Shown piece after piece: positions 12,413 to 59,785 of a DNA stretch of 64,000 bases; positions within the stretch are counted from its first letter, which is position 1; the number at the start of each line of letters is the position of its first letter. Source of the DNA: a virus (taxonomy: Duplodnaviria > Caudoviricetes). Below the pieces are notes generated by a model. It had not been told where the DNA came from, made no database searches, and worked only from the letters and a program-made list of their open reading frames with translations. Made by a program: the position numbers and the translations under genes. Location: IMG/VR virus record IMGVR_UViG_3300022752_000016; one strand, given 5' to 3'.

Positions 12413-15400
12413 ATGGCACAACGTAATATAGATTTTGGAACATTTCCTGATGATCCAAATGCAGACGCTATTAGAACTGCATTTCAAAAAGTACAGGAAA
12501 ACTTTAACGAGTTATTTTCTATTACCACAAGTCAGGCTGTAATATCAATTAATAGAACACCTGGTGCAGGTATTACAGTAAATTCTCCAATAGGTAATGT
12601 CGTTATTACTGCAAATATTTCGAATGTACAAATAAGCACAAGCACTTTAAGTATAGGTAGGAATTTCGTTAACAGAGGAGCTTCTGGTGGTAATGCAAAT
12701 ATTGTAAATTCAAGTCAAGTTTTAGTAATTGATTTACCAAATACTATTGATAATGTATCAAATGTAAACTTAAGTGCAAATTTAAGTGCAAATTTTGTAA
12801 AAGCCAACACATCAATAATTTCTAACACAATTTTTGCAAATTCAACAATAACAGCAAATAACATTAATGTAAATGTTTCAATAGATACATCAAACATTAA
12901 TTCAACAAACGCAAATATTTCTTCAAATTTATTAGCAGGAAATGCATCTATTTCAGGCAATCTGGTTACAAATGATTTAAGTGTCACTGGTAATGTTACA
13001 ACAAACTTATTACCAAATGCAAACATAGCATACAATTTAGGTTCAAATACTCAAAGATGGAAAGACTTATACCTATCAGGAAACACTTTATACATAGGTA
13101 ATGCGACTATTTCAGTCAGCGGTAATAATTTAGTATTAACCAATCCCATAGGAGGTAATTTTGTTATTACTGGCAATACAACGGTTGCACAGGGTATTCA
13201 AGGAATACAAGGAATATTTGGGTTACAAGGACAACAAGGACTAAGCGGTGAGTACGCAGCTCAAGGAATACAAGGAAGGCAAGGACTACAAGGTTTACAA
13301 GGACTACAAGGACTACAAGGACTACAAGGAATAAGTGGGGAGTACGCAGGACAGGGAGTACAGGGCCTACAAGGATTTTTCGGAATACAAGGTAGACAAG
13401 GTGTCCAAGGGTTACAGGGACTATTTGTTCAAGGATCAACTGGTTCCCAGGGTTTAGATGGCATGCAAGGATCCCAAGGACGACAAGGGATACAAGGTTT
13501 AACGGGTGCTTTTGCAGGTCAAGGTATTCAAGGAAACCAAGGTGTTCAGGGTAGGCAAGGATTACAAGGCTTGGATGGATTTGCAGTTGCTCAAGGTATG
13601 CAAGGAGCACAAGGTACACAAGGTAGACAAGGATTATTTGGAACACAAGGATTTCAAGGATTACAGGGACTGCAAGGATTACAGGGACTGCAAGGATTAC
13701 AGGGTTTACAAGGCGTACAAGGGACACAAGGCGTACAAGGATTACAGGGCACACAAGGTGTACAAGGATTACAGGGCACACAAGGTGTACAAGGACTACA
13801 AGGTTTACAAGGTGTACAAGGCACACAAGGCAGACAAGGAGTACAAGGCACACAAGGCAGACAAGGAGTACAAGGTTTACAAGGTGTACAAGGCACACAA
13901 GGTTTACAAGGTGTACAAGGTACACAAGGAAGACAAGGTGTTCAGGGTACACAAGGTACACAAGGACTACAAGGTGTACAAGGCACACAAGGTTTACAAG
14001 GTGTACAAGGCACACAAGGAAGACAAGGTGTTCAGGGTACACAAGGTACACAAGGACTACAAGGACTACAAGGTTTACAAGGTGTACAAGGCAGACAAGG
14101 AGTACAAGGTACACAAGGTACACAAGGTACACAAGGCCTACAAGGTTTACAAGGTGTACAAGGCACACAAGGAAGACAAGGTGTTCAGGGTACACAAGGT
14201 ACACAAGGACTACAAGGACTACAAGGACTACAAGGTGTACAAGGCACACAAGGCAGACAAGGAGTACAAGGTACACAAGGTACACAAGGTACACAAGGTT
14301 TACAAGGTTTACAAGGCACACAAGGAAGACAAGGTGTTCAGGGTACACAAGGTACACAAGGACTACAAGGACTACAAGGACTACAAGGTGTACAAGGCAC
14401 ACAAGGCAGACAAGGAGTACAAGGTACACAAGGTACACAAGGCCTACAAGGTTTACAAGGTGTACAAGGCACACAAGGAAGACAAGGTGTTCAGGGTACA
14501 CAAGGTACACAAGGACTACAAGGACTACAAGGACTACAAGGGGTACAAGGCAGACAAGGTGTTCAGGGGACACAAGGACTACAAGGAGTACAGGGAACAC
14601 AAGGACTACAAGGAGTACAGGGAACACAAGGCAGACAAGGAGTACAAGGAACACAAGGTACACAAGGTGTTCAAGGACTACAAGGCGTTCAAGGTACTCA
14701 AGGTAGACAAGGAACACAAGGAACACAAGGAGCACAAGGAACACAAGGGTTACAGGGAGTTCAAGGCACACAAGGCAGACAAGGAGTACAAGGTACACAA
14801 GGTACACAAGGTACACAAGGCCTACAAGGTGTACAAGGCCTACAAGGTTTACAAGGTGTACAAGGCACACAAGGAAGACAAGGACTACAAGGACTACAAG
14901 GTTTACAAGGTGTACAAGGCACACAAGGAAGACAAGGAGTACAAGGTACACAAGGACTACAAGGACTACAAGGACTACAAGGTGTACAAGGACCACAAAG
15001 TATACAAGGACCACAAGGTACACAAGGACTACAAGGACTACAAGGACTACAAGGTTTGCAAGGGGTACAAGGACCACAAAGTATACAAGGACCACAAGGT
15101 ACACAAGGACTACAAGGACTACAAGGACTACAAGGGGTACAAGGACCACAAAGTATACAAGGACCACAAGGTTTACAAGGACCACAAGGCGTTCAGGGTG
15201 TACAGGGTTTACAAGGACCACAAAGTATACAAGGACCACAAGGTTTACAAGGACCACAAGGTTTTCAAGGAATACAAGGAATACAAGGACCACAAAGTAT
15301 TCAAGGCGTACAAGGCACACAAGGAACACAGGGTGTTCAGGGTTTACAAGGTGTACAAGGCACACAAGGAAGACAAGGTGTTCAGGGTACACAAGGTACA

Positions 15401-18010
15401 CAAGGTACACAAGGCAGACAAGGAGTACAGGGTACACAAGGTGTACAAGGACTACAAGGACTACAAGGAGTACAAGGCACACAAGGCAGACAAGGTGTAC
15501 AAGGTACACAAGGTGTTCAAGGTTTACAGGGAATACAAGGTATTCAAGGTATTCAAGGTACTCAAGGAACTCAGGGAGTGCAGGGGCTTGATGGGTTCGC
15601 AGTAGCCCAAGGAATGCAAGGGACACAAGGCATACAAGGTGTTCAAGGATTACAAGGTAACCAAGGAGTAGCAGGAATACCACAATCTTGGACATTAATA
15701 ACTTCGAGTCAACTCGCAGGGAGTGATACCAGATATATAGCAAATACAAGTGGAGGACCGTTCACATTAACTTTACCAGCCAGTCCAGTTTTAGGACAGG
15801 TAGTTATTGTAACAGATGGAAATAATTGGGCAGCAAATAATTTAACAATTGCAGGTAACGGATCTACAATTCAAGGATCCTATACTGACCTTATTTTAAA
15901 TATACAAGATATTACAGTAGAACTTGTCTATGACGGTACTACATGGTTAGTAACAGCAACATTGGGTCAACGAGGAGTTCAAGGACAAAGTGGAATACAA
16001 GGACTAGATGGTTTTCAAGGTGCACAAGGAACGCAAGGCATACAAGGCAGACAAGGCTTACAAGGTCCTACTGCTGCACAAGGTGCACAAGGAACACAAG
16101 GAGTTCAAGGAACACAGGGCAGACAAGGCTTACAAGGTCCTACTGCTGCACAAGGTGCACAAGGAACACAAGGAGTTCAAGGTACACAAGGTGTACAAGG
16201 CAGGCAAGGCATACAAGGCAGACAAGGATTACAAGGGCCTACAGCATCACAAGGAACACAAGGAACACAAGGAACACAAGGAACACAAGGGTTACAAGGC
16301 AGGCAAGGATTACAAGGGCCTACAGCATCACAAGGAACACAAGGAACACAAGGAACACAAGGGTTACAAGGGCTACAAGGCAGGCAAGGATTACAAGGAC
16401 CTACAGCATCACAAGGAACACAAGGGTTATACGGCATTCAAGGAAATCAAGGTATTCAAGGTATTCCTGGCACAGTAGCAGCACAGGGTATGCAGGGTCT
16501 TCAAGGACTACAAGGAGTTCAGGGAACGCAAGGAACACAAGGATTACAAGGACCTACTGCTGCACAGGGCGCACAGGGAACACAGGGACTACAAGGTAAT
16601 CAGGGGGTACAGGGCAGGCAGGGATTACAAGGTCCAACTGCTGCACAGGGCGCACAGGGAACACAGGGACTACAAGGTAATCAGGGGGTACAGGGCAGAC
16701 AGGGATTACAAGGTCCAACTGCTGCACAAGGTGCACAAGGAACACAGGGATTACAAGGGTTACAAGGTTTGCAAGGATTACAAGGTCGGCAAGGTTTACA
16801 AGGCCCAACTGCTTCACAAGGAACACAAGGTATACAGGGACTTAATGGATTATTTTCAGCACAGGGTACACAAGGATTACAGGGATCAGCAGGAGCAGGT
16901 GGCGGTGGTAACATAAGTGGTCCAGCAAGTGCTAGTGGTAGGGAAATAGCATACTTTACAAGTTCTACAACAATTGACACAGTACCAACTTTAACTTATG
17001 ATCAACCTAATGGTTATATTCAGGTAAAATCGAAGGATTCATTTGATGGCGGTGTGATACAGTTTTACAGTACTGGCAATACAAATTATACAATTTTTGG
17101 GCGTAAAGATACTGGTAGCAATGTAAGTCTTTGGTTACCCAACACAGTAGGCACTACTGGACAAGTATTATCTATTACTTTAAATTCTGGTCCAAGTGAA
17201 GCTCAATTGGGTTGGTCAACTGCGGCAACATACTTTAACACAGGAAATTATAGAATTCCTATTTATGATCCTGATAATTCAAGTTTAAGATTTTATGGAC
17301 CTACCATAGATAGTGATAACGTTATTACAACACGTAATTTTTGGGCTTCAAATACTATAGGTGGGGCAGATAATCCTTACTTAAGAGTTTCTGCACCATC
17401 TGCAAGGACTTATACACAATTTCAAAGAGCCGCAGGTGGCGCAAATACTACACTGTATTTACCGACAGCCAGCGCAAATTCTAGTTACGGTAGCTATTTG
17501 GGTGCAATTGATAGTCAAAATCAACTACAATGGATGTATGGTTTATGGGGCGATGCTGTACGAAGCGATACTACAAGTGCTGACTTTTATTATCCAACTT
17601 GGGTTAGAGACTATTTTAACGGCGCAAATAATATTGTATATATTTCTTCAAGCACTAGTAAGTTTGGTTATAGGCCAAGCTCAGGTACATTACAAGTTAC
17701 TGTATTAACTCAAACTTCTACTATACAAGATAAAGAAAATCTAAGACCTATTACAAATGCACTCTCAACTTTAAATCAATTTAGTACATATTTATATGAC
17801 AGAAAAGATGGGTCAGCCTCAAACGTTCCTGGTGTAATTGCAGAAGAAGTAGCTAATATCTTTCCTGAACTAGTTACTTATACAAGTAATAACATACCAA
17901 CAGGGGTTAACTATACACAATTTATTCCGTTATTAATTGAAGGAATTAAAAATCTAACAGAAAAAGTTGAGTTATTGGAAACTGAAATTAATAATCTTAA
18001 AAATCAGTAA
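12413..18010 (+). CDS. Collagen-like long tail fibre with C-terminal peptidase S74 intramolecular chaperone
   Basis: Baseplate-anchor-like N-terminus '[18 protein letters not shown]'; ~1100 residues of Gly-X-Gln; C-terminal '[10 protein letters not shown]...GVIAEEV...PELV...VNY...LLIEGIKNL' with Ser and Lys five residues apart and a terminal coiled coil. Confidence 0.9.
13190..16885 (+). repeat. 9-bp-period coding tandem repeat (CAAGGnnnn) in two blocks, 13190-15670 and 15965-16885
   Basis: Visible CAAGGTACA/CAAGGACTA/CAAGGTGTA units with higher-order repeats, e.g. 81-bp units starting at 16550 and 16631 with a third, partial copy at 16712. Confidence 0.95.
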
Positions 18011-53931: not shown

Positions 53932-54135
53932 ATGGCAAAAGTAAACTTTAAAAATAGTTCAACATATAACAAAATCTTTGAAGATTTAGAGAAGTATTTA
54001 GAATTTTGTAGAGAGTATGGGTACACATTTAATGAATCAGACCTATATACTAATAGGAGCAATTCATATCGTAATTACCAAAAACATATTACAGGTAAAC
54101 CAGTAAAAAATATGTGGGAAACAGATGGAAAATAA
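53932..54135 (+). CDS. Hypothetical protein
   Basis: 67 aa with RBS AAGGA. Confidence 0.7.
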   Translation: MAKVNFKNSSTYNKIFEDLEKYLEFCREYGYTFNESDLYTNRSNSYRNYQKHITGKPVKNMWETDGK

Positions 54136-54913
54136 TCAATATACTGTTGTATTAGTTACAGGTGGGTTTGACCCTATCCATAGTGGTCATATCGCTTACT
54201 TTAAAGCAGCAAAAGAATTAGGGCATCAATTAGTTGTTGGCCTAAATAGTGATGAATGGTTAGCTAGGAAAAAAGGTAGACCATTTATGCCATTGGCAGA
54301 ACGTGCTGCTATTATTAGTGAATTACGTGTTGTAGATGGTTATATAACTTTTGATGATAGCGATAATTCTGCTAAAAATGCAATTAAATATTGTCTAGAA
54401 AATACATTTAATAATGAGCGTATTATATTCGCTAACGGTGGGGATAGAACACAAGAAAATATTCCTGAAATGGAGATTGTAGATCCCAGACTAGAATTTT
54501 GGTTTAATGTTGGTGGCGATAACAAAATGAATTCTAGTAGTTGGATATTACAAGAATGGAAGGCTCCCAAAACAAATAGACAATGGGGTTATTATCGTGT
54601 ATTACATGAAGATGGTCCTAATGTAAAACTTAAAGAACTAACAGTAGAACCAGGTAAAAGTTTAAGTATGCAGAAGCATAATAAACGTAGTGAGTTTTGG
54701 TTCGTTAGTAAAGGTGAGGCTACTGTTAATACATTAAACTCAAAAAGTGATGTAGAACAATTAGGTGTTTATAATAAACATGAACATTTATTTGTACCAA
54801 ACGAACGTTGGCATCAATTATGTAATAATGGATCAGAACCATTAAAACTTATTGAAATCCAATATGGTGAACAATGTATTGAAGATGATATTGAAAGAAA
54901 AACACAAACATGA
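54125..54913 (+). CDS. HxGH sugar-phosphate nucleotidyltransferase (RfaE/TagD-like) fused to a mannose-6-P-isomerase-type cupin
   Basis: 'TGGFDPIHSGH', 'VGLNSD.WL.RKKGRP', 'FANGGDR', 'SSSWIL'; then 'RQWGYYRVL...KELTVEPGKSLSMQKH..RSEFW...WHQL...IEIQYG'. Confidence 0.85.
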   Translation: MENNQYTVVLVTGGFDPIHSGHIAYFKAAKELGHQLVVGLNSDEWLARKKGRPFMPLAERAAIISELRVVDGYITFDDSDNSAKNAIKYCLENTFNNERIIFANGGDRTQENIPEMEIVDPRLEFWFNVGGDNKMNSSSWILQEWKAPKTNRQWGYYRVLHEDGPNVKLKELTVEPGKSLSMQKHNKRSEFWFVSKGEATVNTLNSKSDVEQLGVYNKHEHLFVPNERWHQLCNNGSEPLKLIEIQYGEQCIEDDIERKTQT

Positions 54914-57011: not shown

Positions 57012-57175
57012 GTTGTAATATCTGTAAAAAAGAGTATAGTCCCAATTGTGATTATAATCAGGGTAGATGCCCACATCATAGGCCTTTAATAACAAATCCT
57101 TATCCATTATGGTTAATAATTTTATTTGTAGCAGTTGTACTATTTTATAGTACTGGGAATAATTATGGGTTTTAA
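57008..57175 (+). CDS. Small Zn-finger plus transmembrane protein (55 aa; not in the ORF track)
   Basis: MSCNICKKEYSPNCDYNQGRCPHH followed by 'LWLIILFVAVVLFY'; ATGA coupling to folE. Confidence 0.65.
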   Translation: MSCNICKKEYSPNCDYNQGRCPHHRPLITNPYPLWLIILFVAVVLFYSTGNNYGF

Positions 57176-57398
57176 AAAACCTGAATTGCAAACTGCAACA
57201 GACATTATTTTTCAAGCTATATATGAAACTCATAGTAAATACAACGATGGTTTTACCCAGTTTGAAATTAAAAAAGATTTATATAAGCTTAAGTGGATAA
57301 TGGATGATTATTTTAAAAAAGCAGATAAGTTTCAAGGGGAAGATGAATGGGTTGAAAAGATATTACAACAAAGAGTATGGGAGTTACTTAAAAAATGA
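57165..57398 (+). CDS. Hypothetical protein
   Basis: ATG at 57165 (MGFKKPEL...); 77 aa. Confidence 0.65.
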   Translation: MGFKKPELQTATDIIFQAIYETHSKYNDGFTQFEIKKDLYKLKWIMDDYFKKADKFQGEDEWVEKILQQRVWELLKK

Positions 57399-58234
57399 CA
57401 GAGAAAATATTAATAATGGGACTACCAGGTTCGGGTAAAACATATTTTGCAGAACGTTTAAAAAAATATTTAGAGATAAATGGAGAAAAGTCTTTATCCA
57501 AAATTGATTCGGATCGCCCTTATCCAATGCTTAATGTAAAAGTAGATTGGTTTAACGCAGATGATATACGTAAAAAATTTAATGATTGGGACTTTAGTAA
57601 AGAAGGTAGAATCCGTCAAAGTTTGCGTATGGCAGAATTTGCAATTCGTTGTAATGGGGAATATGTAATTTGTGATTTTGTTGCTCCTTTACCTGAAATG
57701 AGAAATAATTTTAAAGCTGATTGGACCATATGGATGGATACAATTGATAAAGGTCGGTATAAAGATACGAACAAAGCATTTGTGCCCCCTGACATTTATG
57801 ATTTTCGAATTAATGAACAAAATTGTGAACGTTGGGTACCTTATGTTGGTGAAATGATTATTAGGAAAAAGCGTAGACCAATCTTTGATTGGCGTAAAGA
57901 AACAGTGCAAATGTTAGGTCGTTGGCAACCATGGCATCTTGGGCATCGTGCTTTGTTTGAACGCTTGCTAAGTAAGACAGGACAAGTTATAATACAAATA
58001 CGTGATGTACAAGGATGGCAAAATAGTAACCCGTTTAGTGTTGAAGAAGTTAAAAATTATATAAAACGTGATTTAGATCCATTATATCAAGGTCAATATG
58101 AGATTATGTTAGTTCCAAATATTGTACACATTGGTTGGGGCCGGGGAGTAGGATATACAAGTGGAGAAGAACTTTTTGATGAAGAAATAACAAAAATAAG
58201 TGCAACAGAAATAAGGAAACAACTTGGTTTATAG
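57395..58234 (+). CDS. Adenylyl-sulfate kinase-like P-loop domain fused to an HxGH nucleotidyltransferase
   Basis: 'ILIMGLPGSGKT', 'NADDIR', 'DFSKEGRIRQ', 'ICDFVAP' (CysC-like); C-terminal 'LGRWQPWHLGH...SATEIR'. Confidence 0.8.
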   Translation: MTEKILIMGLPGSGKTYFAERLKKYLEINGEKSLSKIDSDRPYPMLNVKVDWFNADDIRKKFNDWDFSKEGRIRQSLRMAEFAIRCNGEYVICDFVAPLPEMRNNFKADWTIWMDTIDKGRYKDTNKAFVPPDIYDFRINEQNCERWVPYVGEMIIRKKRRPIFDWRKETVQMLGRWQPWHLGHRALFERLLSKTGQVIIQIRDVQGWQNSNPFSVEEVKNYIKRDLDPLYQGQYEIMLVPNIVHIGWGRGVGYTSGEELFDEEITKISATEIRKQLGL

Positions 58235-58235
58235 T

Positions 58236-58910
58236 ATGTGGGAAAATATAAAATTACCATTGGTAATACTTTCTAGTCCAAGATCTGGTTCTACTGTTTT
58301 ACTAGACACTATTCGTAATTATTTAAATGACAATAATGTAAATTTTACAGACATAGGCAGTGAACCAATTACACATGAAGATCGGTCTTTTGAACGTTAT
58401 GAAAAATTAAACCACAATTTAACAACAAATAATTTCATTTGTAAACTTCATGTTTTTCAACTTAAAACAATTTATCCAATGTTTTTTTTTGATAATATAC
58501 TTCAAGGAAAATACTTTTTAATAAGGATTAGGAGAAAAAATATTGCAGAACAATTAGTAAGTCTTTACATAAGTCATGTGTATGGAGAAAAAGAAATTTT
58601 CCAAAATTCAAAAGAATCAAATAAAAAATACATTGAAAATAAAAAAATTCCAATTGATAAATTTATTATGGAACAAGTAATAATACGTGGCATGCACCAT
58701 ATACATCTTTTAGAAAATTTTAATTGTAAATTTGATTTAGATTTATGGTACGAGGATATAATATTCAACTCAAAGAAGTATTACAAACCAAAACCTCCTA
58801 GTAATTATAAAGAATTAGTTGATAGAGTTAGTAACATTGTACAAGATAAAACTTTTGACTCGTTAATAAAAACTATAAAAGTTCATCCATTGACCCTTAA
58901 ATCGACATAA
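58236..58910 (+). CDS. Sulfotransferase-family protein (Stf0-like)
   Basis: 5'-PSB loop 'ILSSPRSGSTVL', 'CKLH', 3'-PB-like 'IRRKNIAEQLVSLY', 'WYEDI'. Confidence 0.7.
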   Translation: MWENIKLPLVILSSPRSGSTVLLDTIRNYLNDNNVNFTDIGSEPITHEDRSFERYEKLNHNLTTNNFICKLHVFQLKTIYPMFFFDNILQGKYFLIRIRRKNIAEQLVSLYISHVYGEKEIFQNSKESNKKYIENKKIPIDKFIMEQVIIRGMHHIHLLENFNCKFDLDLWYEDIIFNSKKYYKPKPPSNYKELVDRVSNIVQDKTFDSLIKTIKVHPLTLKST

Positions 58911-58913
58911 AAA

Positions 58914-59588
58914 ATGTTTACCAATTTAAAATTACCTATTGTTATACTTTCTAGTCCAAGATCTGGTTCTAATGTTCTTTATGATACTATTTGTAATTAT
59001 TTAAGTGATAATAAAATACACTATGTTGGTACAGGAGTTGAACCTTTATTATTTGATAATTATAATGATACAAAAAGTTTAAAAAAGTTTGATGAAATAA
59101 TAGCAACGAACAATTTTGTAACAAAAATTCATGCTATACATTTAAAAAAGTTATACCCTAATTATTTTGTACAAAATATTTTGCAAAAAAAATATACCAT
59201 TGTTAGGATAAGACGAAGAAATATAATTGAACAATTAATTAGTCTATACATTTGCACACTTATTGATATTATCAATAAAGGAGATGAACTTATTTGGTCA
59301 AACACTAAAAAAAGTAATAGATTGATTGAAGATAAAAAAATTCCCATTTATGAAGATGTTTTAAAAAAGGTTATAAATTATGGAATATTAGCAATAACAT
59401 ACTGTGAAAATTTTAATTACAATTTTGATTTAGACTTATATTATGAAGATTTATCGTTTAATTCAAAAAAACACTTTAAACCAACAAAAAAACCTAGTAA
59501 CTATGAAGAATTGCACACAATTTTTAGCGATCATTTAGCAAAAATTGATTTTAAACAGAACAACGATATATTAAATACCCTTTTATGA
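58914..59588 (+). CDS. Sulfotransferase-family protein, tandem paralog of 58236..58910
   Basis: 'ILSSPRSGSNVL', 'TKIH', 'IRRRNIIEQLISLY', 'YYEDL', 'KPSNYEEL'. Confidence 0.7.
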   Translation: MFTNLKLPIVILSSPRSGSNVLYDTICNYLSDNKIHYVGTGVEPLLFDNYNDTKSLKKFDEIIATNNFVTKIHAIHLKKLYPNYFVQNILQKKYTIVRIRRRNIIEQLISLYICTLIDIINKGDELIWSNTKKSNRLIEDKKIPIYEDVLKKVINYGILAITYCENFNYNFDLDLYYEDLSFNSKKHFKPTKKPSNYEELHTIFSDHLAKIDFKQNNDILNTLL

Positions 59589-59785
59589 TGAATTCAAAAG
59601 ATAATAGTATTATACTACGAATGTCGGAACTAATGAAACCTATTGATAAACAAATAATGATGACGAATGATGATAAAGAATTACTTATGCTGGCGTGTGC
59701 TATGTTACAACGTGTAACAGAAATATTTGATAACACATTAACAGTAACTGGAAGAAAAAAAATGTTTAGCGATTTGATTAAATAG
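59585..59785 (+). CDS. Hypothetical protein
   Basis: 66-aa ATGA-coupled ORF. Confidence 0.7.
   Translation: MMNSKDNSIILRMSELMKPIDKQIMMTNDDKELLMLACAMLQRVTEIFDNTLTVTGRKKMFSDLIK

Follow-up and report, generated by a model that had tools for sequence, protein, structure and literature searches.

A 279-residue kinase–nucleotidyltransferase fusion next to tandem sulfotransferases in a T4-like phage is a candidate compact PAPS synthase

In animals, the sulfate donor 3′-phosphoadenosine 5′-phosphosulfate (PAPS) is made by PAPS synthase (PAPSS1/2, PDB ID: 1x6v), a single chain of ~620 amino acids with an adenosine 5′-phosphosulfate (APS) kinase-type N-terminal part and an adenylyltransferase of the HxxH superfamily in the C-terminal part, which feeds sulfotransferases. 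A dedicated supply of PAPS beside a sulfotransferase is classically represented by the rhizobial nodPQ-nodH genes. Here, we report a phage locus that seems to mirror this private supply, with one small protein in place of the CysDN-type subunits. It lies in a stretch of 64,000 nucleotides (the window; IMG/VR record IMGVR_UViG_3300022752_000016) from a lake-type T4-like phage with ~32% G+C, whose tail sheath and DNA polymerases are encoded in the same window, and it consists of a gene for a 279-amino acid fusion protein, KinNT, followed directly by two paralogous sulfotransferase-like genes, ST1 and ST2 (Table 1). Like the animal enzyme, KinNT has both domains in one chain and in the same order, its kinase half superposes on PAPSS1, and it would be expected to feed sulfotransferases; it is far shorter, however, and its C-terminal half is without the QxRNP motif and the PUA-like domain. 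KinNT is probably a PAPS-synthase-like two-domain enzyme from a different, minimal adenylyltransferase lineage, and we consider it, with somewhat better than even confidence, a candidate two-step PAPS-making enzyme that would feed ST1 and ST2. In our literature searches, neither a characterized phage PAPS synthase nor a description of this fusion was found, and the role of phage sulfotransferases has been described as unclear (PMC10580990).

The N-terminal half of KinNT is a trimmed and divergent relative of APS kinase in which the substrate motifs are retained. The N terminus carries MGLPGSGKT, the protein matches PHROG 10255, described as 'kinase' (E = 9e-41), and the Pfam APS_kinase model matches residues 5–107 (E = 7.4e-7; 29.8 bits versus a cut-off of 21.1). 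The AlphaFold2 model of the whole protein has a mean predicted local distance difference test score (pLDDT) of 92.6 and a predicted template modeling score (pTM) of 0.80; when this model was searched with Foldseek, the first 14 matches and most of the top 50 were either APS kinases or human PAPS synthase, matched in its kinase part, the APS kinase matches having template modeling (TM) scores by target of 0.6–0.69 and a probability of 1.0. The motifs of this half are the P-loop (G9–T16), D56-x-x-R59, F67-S68-x-x-x-R72, Q75, A97-P98, and K119-G-R121. In an alignment with two canonical SAR11 CysC proteins, the P-loop, D56, R59, F67, R72, and P132 (of [FY]-x-x-P) are invariant; the fold, the P-loop, and the D-x-x-R, F-S-x-x-x-R, and [FY]-x-x-P motifs are common to the kinase half and canonical CysC (PF01583/TIGR00455). 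In the same alignment, ~16 residues of CysC find no counterpart in KinNT; this gap lies mid-domain, before [FY]-x-x-P, at a segment that we take to be the mobile lid region of CysC and where K119-G-R121 remains. The first Asp of the CysC D-G-D motif is replaced by Asn54 in KinNT, and Q75 stands at a position that we presume to be Asn in CysC; the roles given here to the residues of the substrate motifs (D-G-D-x-x-R and F-S-x-x-D-R-x-E-N-x-R-R) are likewise our assumed assignments. With NCBIfam, the kinase half reaches 19.8 bits for apsK TIGR00455 (cut-off 138.7) and 27.6 bits for PRK05541 (cut-off 127). From the conserved motifs, APS kinase activity of this half seems quite probable to us. A metagenomic protein of 269 amino acids, P0259, has the reversed domain order, with the nucleotidyltransferase motif at residues 12–44 and the APS-kinase-like domain at residues 123–207.

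The C-terminal half forms a separate family inside the HxxH superfamily and is a member of neither the Sat-type ATP sulfurylases nor the NadM-type nicotinamide mononucleotide (NMN) adenylyltransferases (NMNATs). The Pfam CTP_transf_like model matches residues 175–218 (E = 3e-3), and the motifs are GRWQPWHLGH (residues 175–184, including H181 and H184), R203, N212-P213, P241-N242, G249-R250-G-V-G253-Y254, and ISATEIR (residues 268–274). G175, R176, Q178, H181, H184, R203, G249, R250, G253, and R274 are invariant in the family alignments; among these, H181, H184, R176, and R274 are the predicted catalytic residues, while R203 and G249-R250 appear to be family-specific. Because the Foldseek list of the whole model was filled by kinases, the C-terminal domain was folded (pLDDT 94.3) and searched separately. 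A shape search of the ESM Atlas returned only clusters of the domain's own uncharacterized family, and the profile search of the PDB returned NadM-type NMNATs (E = 4e-13 to 1e-8; 1f9a at 4.4e-13). No Sat chain was found in this profile search up to E = 1, and hhalign against 16 Sat catalytic domains taken from genomes aligned 22 columns around HxxH only, with a probability of 19.5%. The original prediction had likened this half to the HxxH-fold ATP sulfurylase of eukaryotic PAPS synthases; with nothing beyond HxxH found in either search, membership in the Sat type was rejected.

The fold and the motifs of this domain were also compared with both neighboring families. VIA-align gave Z-scores of 10.2 for PPAT, 9.9 for NMNAT, 8.6 for the Thermus ATP sulfurylase 1v47, and 6.5 for RibF, and the longest alignment listed was that with 1v47 (115 aligned residues, root-mean-square deviation 3.4); values of 10.2 to 8.6 are too close to part NMNAT, PPAT, and ATP sulfurylase, and the ranking was not used for function. 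The structural comparison called for in the original prediction suggests the superfamily fold that is also seen in Sat and leaves these functions unseparated. The C-terminal half is half the size of the Sat catalytic domain; where Sat has Q-x-R-N-P-x-H-x-x-H, KinNT has G-R-W-Q-P-W-H-L-G-H, and the Sat GRDHAG loop can be set beside the invariant G249-R250-(D/G)-V-G-Y, a comparison by sequence letters only. With NadM NMNATs (1f9a, 1ej2, 2qjt), it has in common GR[FW]QP[FW]HxGH, NPF after strand 2, and ISxTxIR; unlike them, it has its own invariant R203 and GR(D/G)VGY, and its genomic partners are sulfur genes rather than NAD genes. Compared with NadM, the domain is shorter by ~25 residues following strand 3 and by the C-terminal subdomain: positions 88–98 of the C-terminal profile correspond to residues 75–110 of 1f9a, a segment which presumably carries nicotinamide-binding residues, and KinNT ends at the ISATEIR helix, whereas 1f9a runs to residue 168. 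The NCBIfam NMNAT models score 27.8–29.9 bits (TIGR01527, cut-off 181.2) and 28.3–30.9 bits (NF002243, cut-off 127), with E-values of ~1e-6.

ST1 and ST2 align over 204 residues with 50% identity (E = 5e-57), and both begin with a ...LSSPRSGS... segment. In the family of 26 sequences formed by the two paralogs and 24 metagenomic homologs, the SSPR[ST]GS loop, K-x-H, R101...S110, and Y-E-D are invariant; the 5′-phosphosulfate loop aligns with the same loop in Stf0 (1tex) and in the CurM sulfotransferase, and R101 and S110 sit inside IRIRRxN..Q..S, the 3′-phosphate motif, which aligns with Stf0 residues 152–183. The family profile matches 1tex with E = 0.0032 only. ST1 and ST2 themselves match no Pfam family, so their family membership is drawn from the homologs, among which Sulfotransfer_3 (PF13469) is matched by 12 and Stf0 (PF09037) by 7 of the 26 family members. 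Since both PAPS-binding motifs known from the Stf0, NodH, and Sulfotransfer_3 enzymes are retained, ST1 and ST2 are predicted to be real but distant PAPS-type sulfotransferases of the Stf0/Sulfotransfer_3 type. The gene arrangement that had been described for this region, i.e., a CysC-like half fused to an HxGH half carrying RWQPWHLGH, with two paralogous PRSGS-loop proteins right after it, is borne out by the open reading frames (ORFs), Pfam, Foldseek, and the PDB profile search, and the sulfotransferase assignment of the paralogs by the invariant PAPS-binding motifs and the Stf0/CurM profile matches.

The paralog family is rare in metagenomes, with 26 homologs versus more than 7,700 for the fusion, and a tblastn search of cultured phages with the window sulfotransferase found no match. 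Neither an APS_kinase nor a nucleotidyltransferase gene appears in the gene tables of contigs that carry ST homologs, a result drawn from the tables and not from a search with the fusion sequence; on one of these contigs, a 156-amino acid AAA_33 gene lies at a distance of 3 kb. Locus L004, to which the window is most closely related, has a fusion that is 96% identical and flanking genes that are 73–100% identical, and at the site of the ST pair (L004, 8868–9490) it has a single different, unrelated-looking Stf0-like sulfotransferase with 26–32% identity to the pair. The sulfotransferase genes are swapped at a fixed site between these two phages.

A wider phage sample consisted of 80 IMG/VR loci plus the window (81 in total), which are related loci and not independent events. 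A sulfotransferase ORF lies within 8 kb of the fusion in 40 of the 81, and one is present in 33 of the 53 loci that have more than 5 kb of upstream flank. These sulfotransferases are single- or double-domain Sulfotransfer_1/3 proteins or Stf0-like proteins, at varying distances; they represent two groups and three architectures. That different types of sulfotransferase come and go while the fusion gene stays in place nevertheless points to a functional tie. KinNT is a conserved gene of the phage lineage, with or without a sulfotransferase nearby. Among cultured phages, only Sano/Salvo-like Casjensviridae and DLP_6 carry the fusion (34–37% identity), and a Sulfotransfer_3 search in these phages gave one sub-threshold match of 11 bits, to an ORF two genes upstream of the kinase. 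In Stenotrophomonas phage Bhz60 (L001:4978-5553, gene 00032), this hypothetical protein has LPRSRS near its N terminus and HRPAREVAHS later, which resemble the two PAPS-binding motifs; hhalign to the sulfotransferase profile gave a probability of 5.9%. Kinase-only homologs occur in the Ralstonia phages phiRSL1 and RsoM2USA and among the metagenomic representatives. Representatives with additional fused parts (P0189, P0194, P0197, P0198, P0212, P0249, P0255, and P0292) were considered as Rosetta-stone clues and found uninformative; the extra parts are DUF4118, fragments of chorismate synthase or DHQS, or segments without a Pfam match, and some of these proteins may be chimeric calls.

Bacterial carriers of the family include Pelagibacteraceae (46–50% identity), SAR86, SAR116, and many soil Alphaproteobacteria, in which the kinase and the nucleotidyltransferase are either fused or encoded by two genes coupled via an ATGA overlap. 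At least eight bacterial loci have TPR-Sulfotransfer_3 genes close by, adjacent in seven; these loci belong to different orders and come from SAR116, a gammaproteobacterium, Bradyrhizobium, Sphingomicrobium, and Rhodospirillales. In Inquilinus limosus (L122:8838-10250), an ASST-family gene is directly downstream of the fusion gene, an odd pairing as ASST enzymes are usually PAPS-independent.

The SAR11 genomes provide a second sulfur context. Five family-carrying genomes were inspected: CysD is found in none, Sat is missing in four, and AprA and Sulfotransfer_3 are each present in four; on the complete chromosome G002, the family gene is the sole APS_kinase-family match. Across 121 Pelagibacteraceae genomes, the C-terminal domain occurs together with aprA in 41, alone in 12, aprA occurs alone in 6, and neither is found in 62 (odds ratio 35, Fisher p = 5e-15, uncorrected for phylogeny and completeness); Sat is present in five of all 121. 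Of the 41 genomes with both, 19 have the domain gene on the aprA strand, 1.8–5.8 kb upstream of aprA, and the genes follow one another as (kinase)-nucleotidyltransferase-(TenA-like)-263-amino acid membrane gene-aprB-aprA. Examples are L188:2706-6316, L190:1894-6708, and L094:7998-13639, in which a TenA/PqqC-family gene adjoins the nucleotidyltransferase gene. In sulfur oxidizers, e.g., Allochromatium, sat sits directly upstream of aprM-aprBA, and the SAR11 domain gene has that position. The 263-amino acid membrane gene fits aprM, which reportedly precedes aprBA and is co-transcribed with it in the SAR11 lineage (PMC2211403), and the nucleotidyltransferase-aprMBA cluster of SAR11 seems to be undescribed. 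Published SAR11 gene tables list cysC, cysQ, and aprA as present and sat and cysDN as absent (PMC5069961, PMC3448164). No APS_kinase match at all was found in five genomes with a nucleotidyltransferase-only gene beside aprMBA; the C-terminal domain is thus linked to aprMBA even without a detected kinase, which suggests that it is tied to APS itself. In the isolate Pelagibacter sp. HIMB1587, which has a split kinase/transferase pair, another part of the genome (G001:C1:801226-808806) encodes a second CysC that is canonical (110 bits) and lies ~7 kb from a Sulfotransfer_3 gene.

The three recurrent partners of the C-terminal domain are unrelated to each other: an APS-kinase-type domain uses APS, AprBA makes or uses APS, and sulfotransferases use PAPS, so the common denominator of these contexts is APS, and a nucleotidyltransferase with APS as its substrate or product would be an ATP sulfurylase. 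We consider the assignment of the C-terminal half as an ATP sulfurylase reasonably likely; it follows from the fusion to the kinase, the linkage to sulfotransferases, and the aprM-aprBA position in SAR11 genomes mostly without Sat or CysD. The C-terminal half would move AMP from ATP onto sulfate, giving APS and pyrophosphate (PPi), the N-terminal half, as its motifs and fold suggest, would phosphorylate the 3′-OH of APS to PAPS, and ST1 and ST2 may then transfer the sulfate group of PAPS to one or two acceptors. Glycosyltransferase, sugar-nucleotidyltransferase, and epimerase genes are nearby, which makes sugars, or glycans of the surface or the virion, the probable acceptors. With the fused form, phages would not depend on the host to sulfate targets of their own. 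In SAR11, the C-terminal domain may convert APS and PPi to ATP and sulfate and, with the trimmed kinase, may be a source of PAPS. The sulfurylase half would then be a separate and much smaller lineage of the superfamily, possibly from NadM-like ancestors rather than from Sat. The broader proposal, in which the domain is a third, hitherto unrecognized kind of ATP sulfurylase of ~110 residues with NadM ancestry and the 'missing sat' partner of AprMBA in SAR11, and the phage fusion is the smallest complete PAPS synthase, is in our estimate evenly balanced. The compact phage PAPS synthase of the original prediction is well supported as to its APS-kinase half, is backed in its link to sulfation by recurrent gene neighborhoods in phages and bacteria, is not supported as to a Sat-type C-terminal half, and draws its sulfate activation from genomic context.

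Several observations weigh against a PAPS-making role. Both KinNT halves score far under the NCBIfam equivalog cut-offs, and with the ~16-residue gap relative to canonical CysC, the activity of the kinase could differ. The closest relatives of the C-terminal half by sequence are NMNATs, hhalign gave no specific similarity to Sat, and in the fold comparison PPAT and NMNAT rank slightly over 1v47, with other Sat chains only at Z 5.5–6.3. The cultured phages with the fusion (Sano/Salvo-like and DLP_6) have NADAR and MazG neighbors and no clear sulfotransferase. In SAR11, the co-occurrence counts of the domain and aprA are inflated by shared ancestry and incomplete genomes, and three genomes with the domain near aprA also have a Sat match. 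SAR11 can also make APS through AprBA (PMC5069961), which means that these bacteria could in principle do without a sulfurylase. In the most serious alternative, only the N-terminal half serves sulfation, the kinase converting host APS (from CysDN, Sat, or AprBA) to PAPS, while the C-terminal half adenylylates some other small phospho-compound or acts in regulation or in APS handling short of sulfate activation, e.g., only APS + PPi to ATP. The kinase evidence from Pfam, Foldseek, and the CysC alignment serves this explanation equally well, and the kinase-only homologs of phiRSL1, RsoM2USA, and the metagenomic representatives, together with the missing Sat-specific similarity and the AprBA route to APS in SAR11, speak for it. 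Against it, phages, SAR11, SAR86, and soil Alphaproteobacteria all keep the C-terminal half in fusion with, or coupled to, the kinase, and its linkage to aprMBA extends to genomes in which no kinase was found; the rhizobial NodPQ + NodH modules duplicate both steps and not the kinase alone. We regard this alternative as possible although rather unlikely.

NMNATs as the closest solved relatives of the C-terminal half, with NCBIfam NMNAT matches near 1e-6, suggest another function, i.e., a NadR-like salvage of nicotinamide adenine dinucleotide (NAD+) with swapped domain order, in which the kinase would act on nicotinamide riboside and the NadM-like domain would turn NMN into NAD+, for instance to counter NAD-depleting host defenses, the sulfotransferases being unrelated neighbors. 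A SAR11 ortholog gives a weak match to the NadR model, in its kinase part (NCBIfam, E = 1.9e-5), and a NADAR-domain gene adjoins the fusion in Sano-like phages. We nevertheless find NAD salvage quite improbable: two NadM parts are missing, namely, the C-terminal subdomain and a stretch of ~25 residues past strand 3, the NMNAT models give 28 bits where 127–181 are required, NadR is not among the 50 best Foldseek matches of the full model, the kinase retains D-x-x-R and F-S-x-x-x-R of CysC, and the recurrent sulfotransferase and aprMBA linkage would be left unexplained. The flavin of AprA offers one more explanation for the place beside aprBA, with the C-terminal half as a flavin mononucleotide (FMN) adenylyltransferase, i.e., a flavin adenine dinucleotide (FAD) synthase, or as another cofactor adenylyltransferase; a RibF-related model that weakly matches a SAR11 ortholog (E = 3.9e-4) and the RibF Z-score agree with this, but the fusion to an APS-kinase-type domain and the sulfotransferase neighborhoods would have no explanation, and FAD synthases give weaker fold and profile matches than NMNAT, PPAT, and ATP sulfurylase do. 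This seems to us the least probable of all.

The coordinates of the locus are collected in Table 1; in the protein searches, the window is recorded on a contig of 205 kb. The plus-strand block has the order folE (56331), three small ORFs, the fusion, the two paralogs, a small ORF, queD, a MazG-like gene, and queE, and both of its flanks contain the sugar-nucleotidyltransferase, glycosyltransferase, and epimerase genes; in related phage loci, neck, gp15, and terminase genes lie downstream of the fusion. Packing in the locus is tight, with a 1-nt gap between the fusion and ST1, a 3-nt gap between ST1 and ST2, and 4-nt overlaps with the small ORFs on either side. The ORF listing begins ST1 at TTG 58224; the start is most likely ATG 58236, two bases past the fusion stop, as this gives a residue-for-residue alignment with ST2 and with the metagenomic homolog P0123. 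The 87- and 66-amino acid ORFs that flank the three genes have no PHROG or NCBIfam match. A sequence scan found no terminator-like sites between folE and queD, and in a promoter scan, promoter-like sites were not more frequent than in shuffled sequence.

Table 1. Features of the KinNT-ST1-ST2 locus in window coordinates
Feature	Coordinates	Strand	Evidence or remark
87-aa ORF	57135..57398	+	Stop overlaps fusion start by 4 nt; kept in close relative L004
KinNT, 279-aa kinase–nucleotidyltransferase fusion, candidate compact PAPS synthase	57395..58234	+	Pfam, PHROG, homolog alignment, AlphaFold2 model
KinNT N-terminal APS-kinase-like P-loop domain, ~residues 1–158	57395..57868	+	Foldseek, Pfam APS_kinase, CysC alignment
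KinNT C-terminal minimal HxGH nucleotidyltransferase domain, residues 160–279	57872..58234	+	PDB profile search, model, fold comparison
ST1, predicted sulfotransferase paralog 1, 224 aa from ATG 58236	58236..58910	+	Motifs SSPRSGS, K-x-H, RIRRKN..Q..S, YED
ST2, predicted sulfotransferase paralog 2, 224 aa	58914..59588	+	Motifs; homologs with PF09037/PF13469, JGI name 'LPS sulfotransferase NodH'
66-aa ORF	59585..59785	+	Start overlaps ST2 stop by 4 nt

Two other regions of the window are mentioned here. At 54125–54913, a 262-amino acid fusion of a cytidylyltransferase-like domain and a mannose-6-phosphate-isomerase-type cupin is encoded, and its homologs directly adjoin the kinase fusion in 11 related phage loci. 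At 12413–18010, an ORF of 1865 amino acids has a G+C content of 0.42–0.45, compared with ~0.32 elsewhere, and a strong AT skew; an open frame of 860 amino acids is present on the opposite strand (13167–15749).

If our interpretation of KinNT is true, the domain that activates sulfate would have only half the size of the ATP sulfurylases known so far and would represent another branch of the superfamily, and a complete PAPS synthase would be contained in 279 residues, which may also make it a practical tool for enzymatic sulfation. The source of the donor for the sulfotransferases of abundant lake and ocean phages would then be explained, as would the handling of APS and the making of PAPS in SAR11 bacteria, which have aprBA, cysQ, and several sulfotransferases and no sat or cysDN. 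This long-noted gap in the sulfur metabolism of SAR11 would become directly testable via one small recombinant protein.

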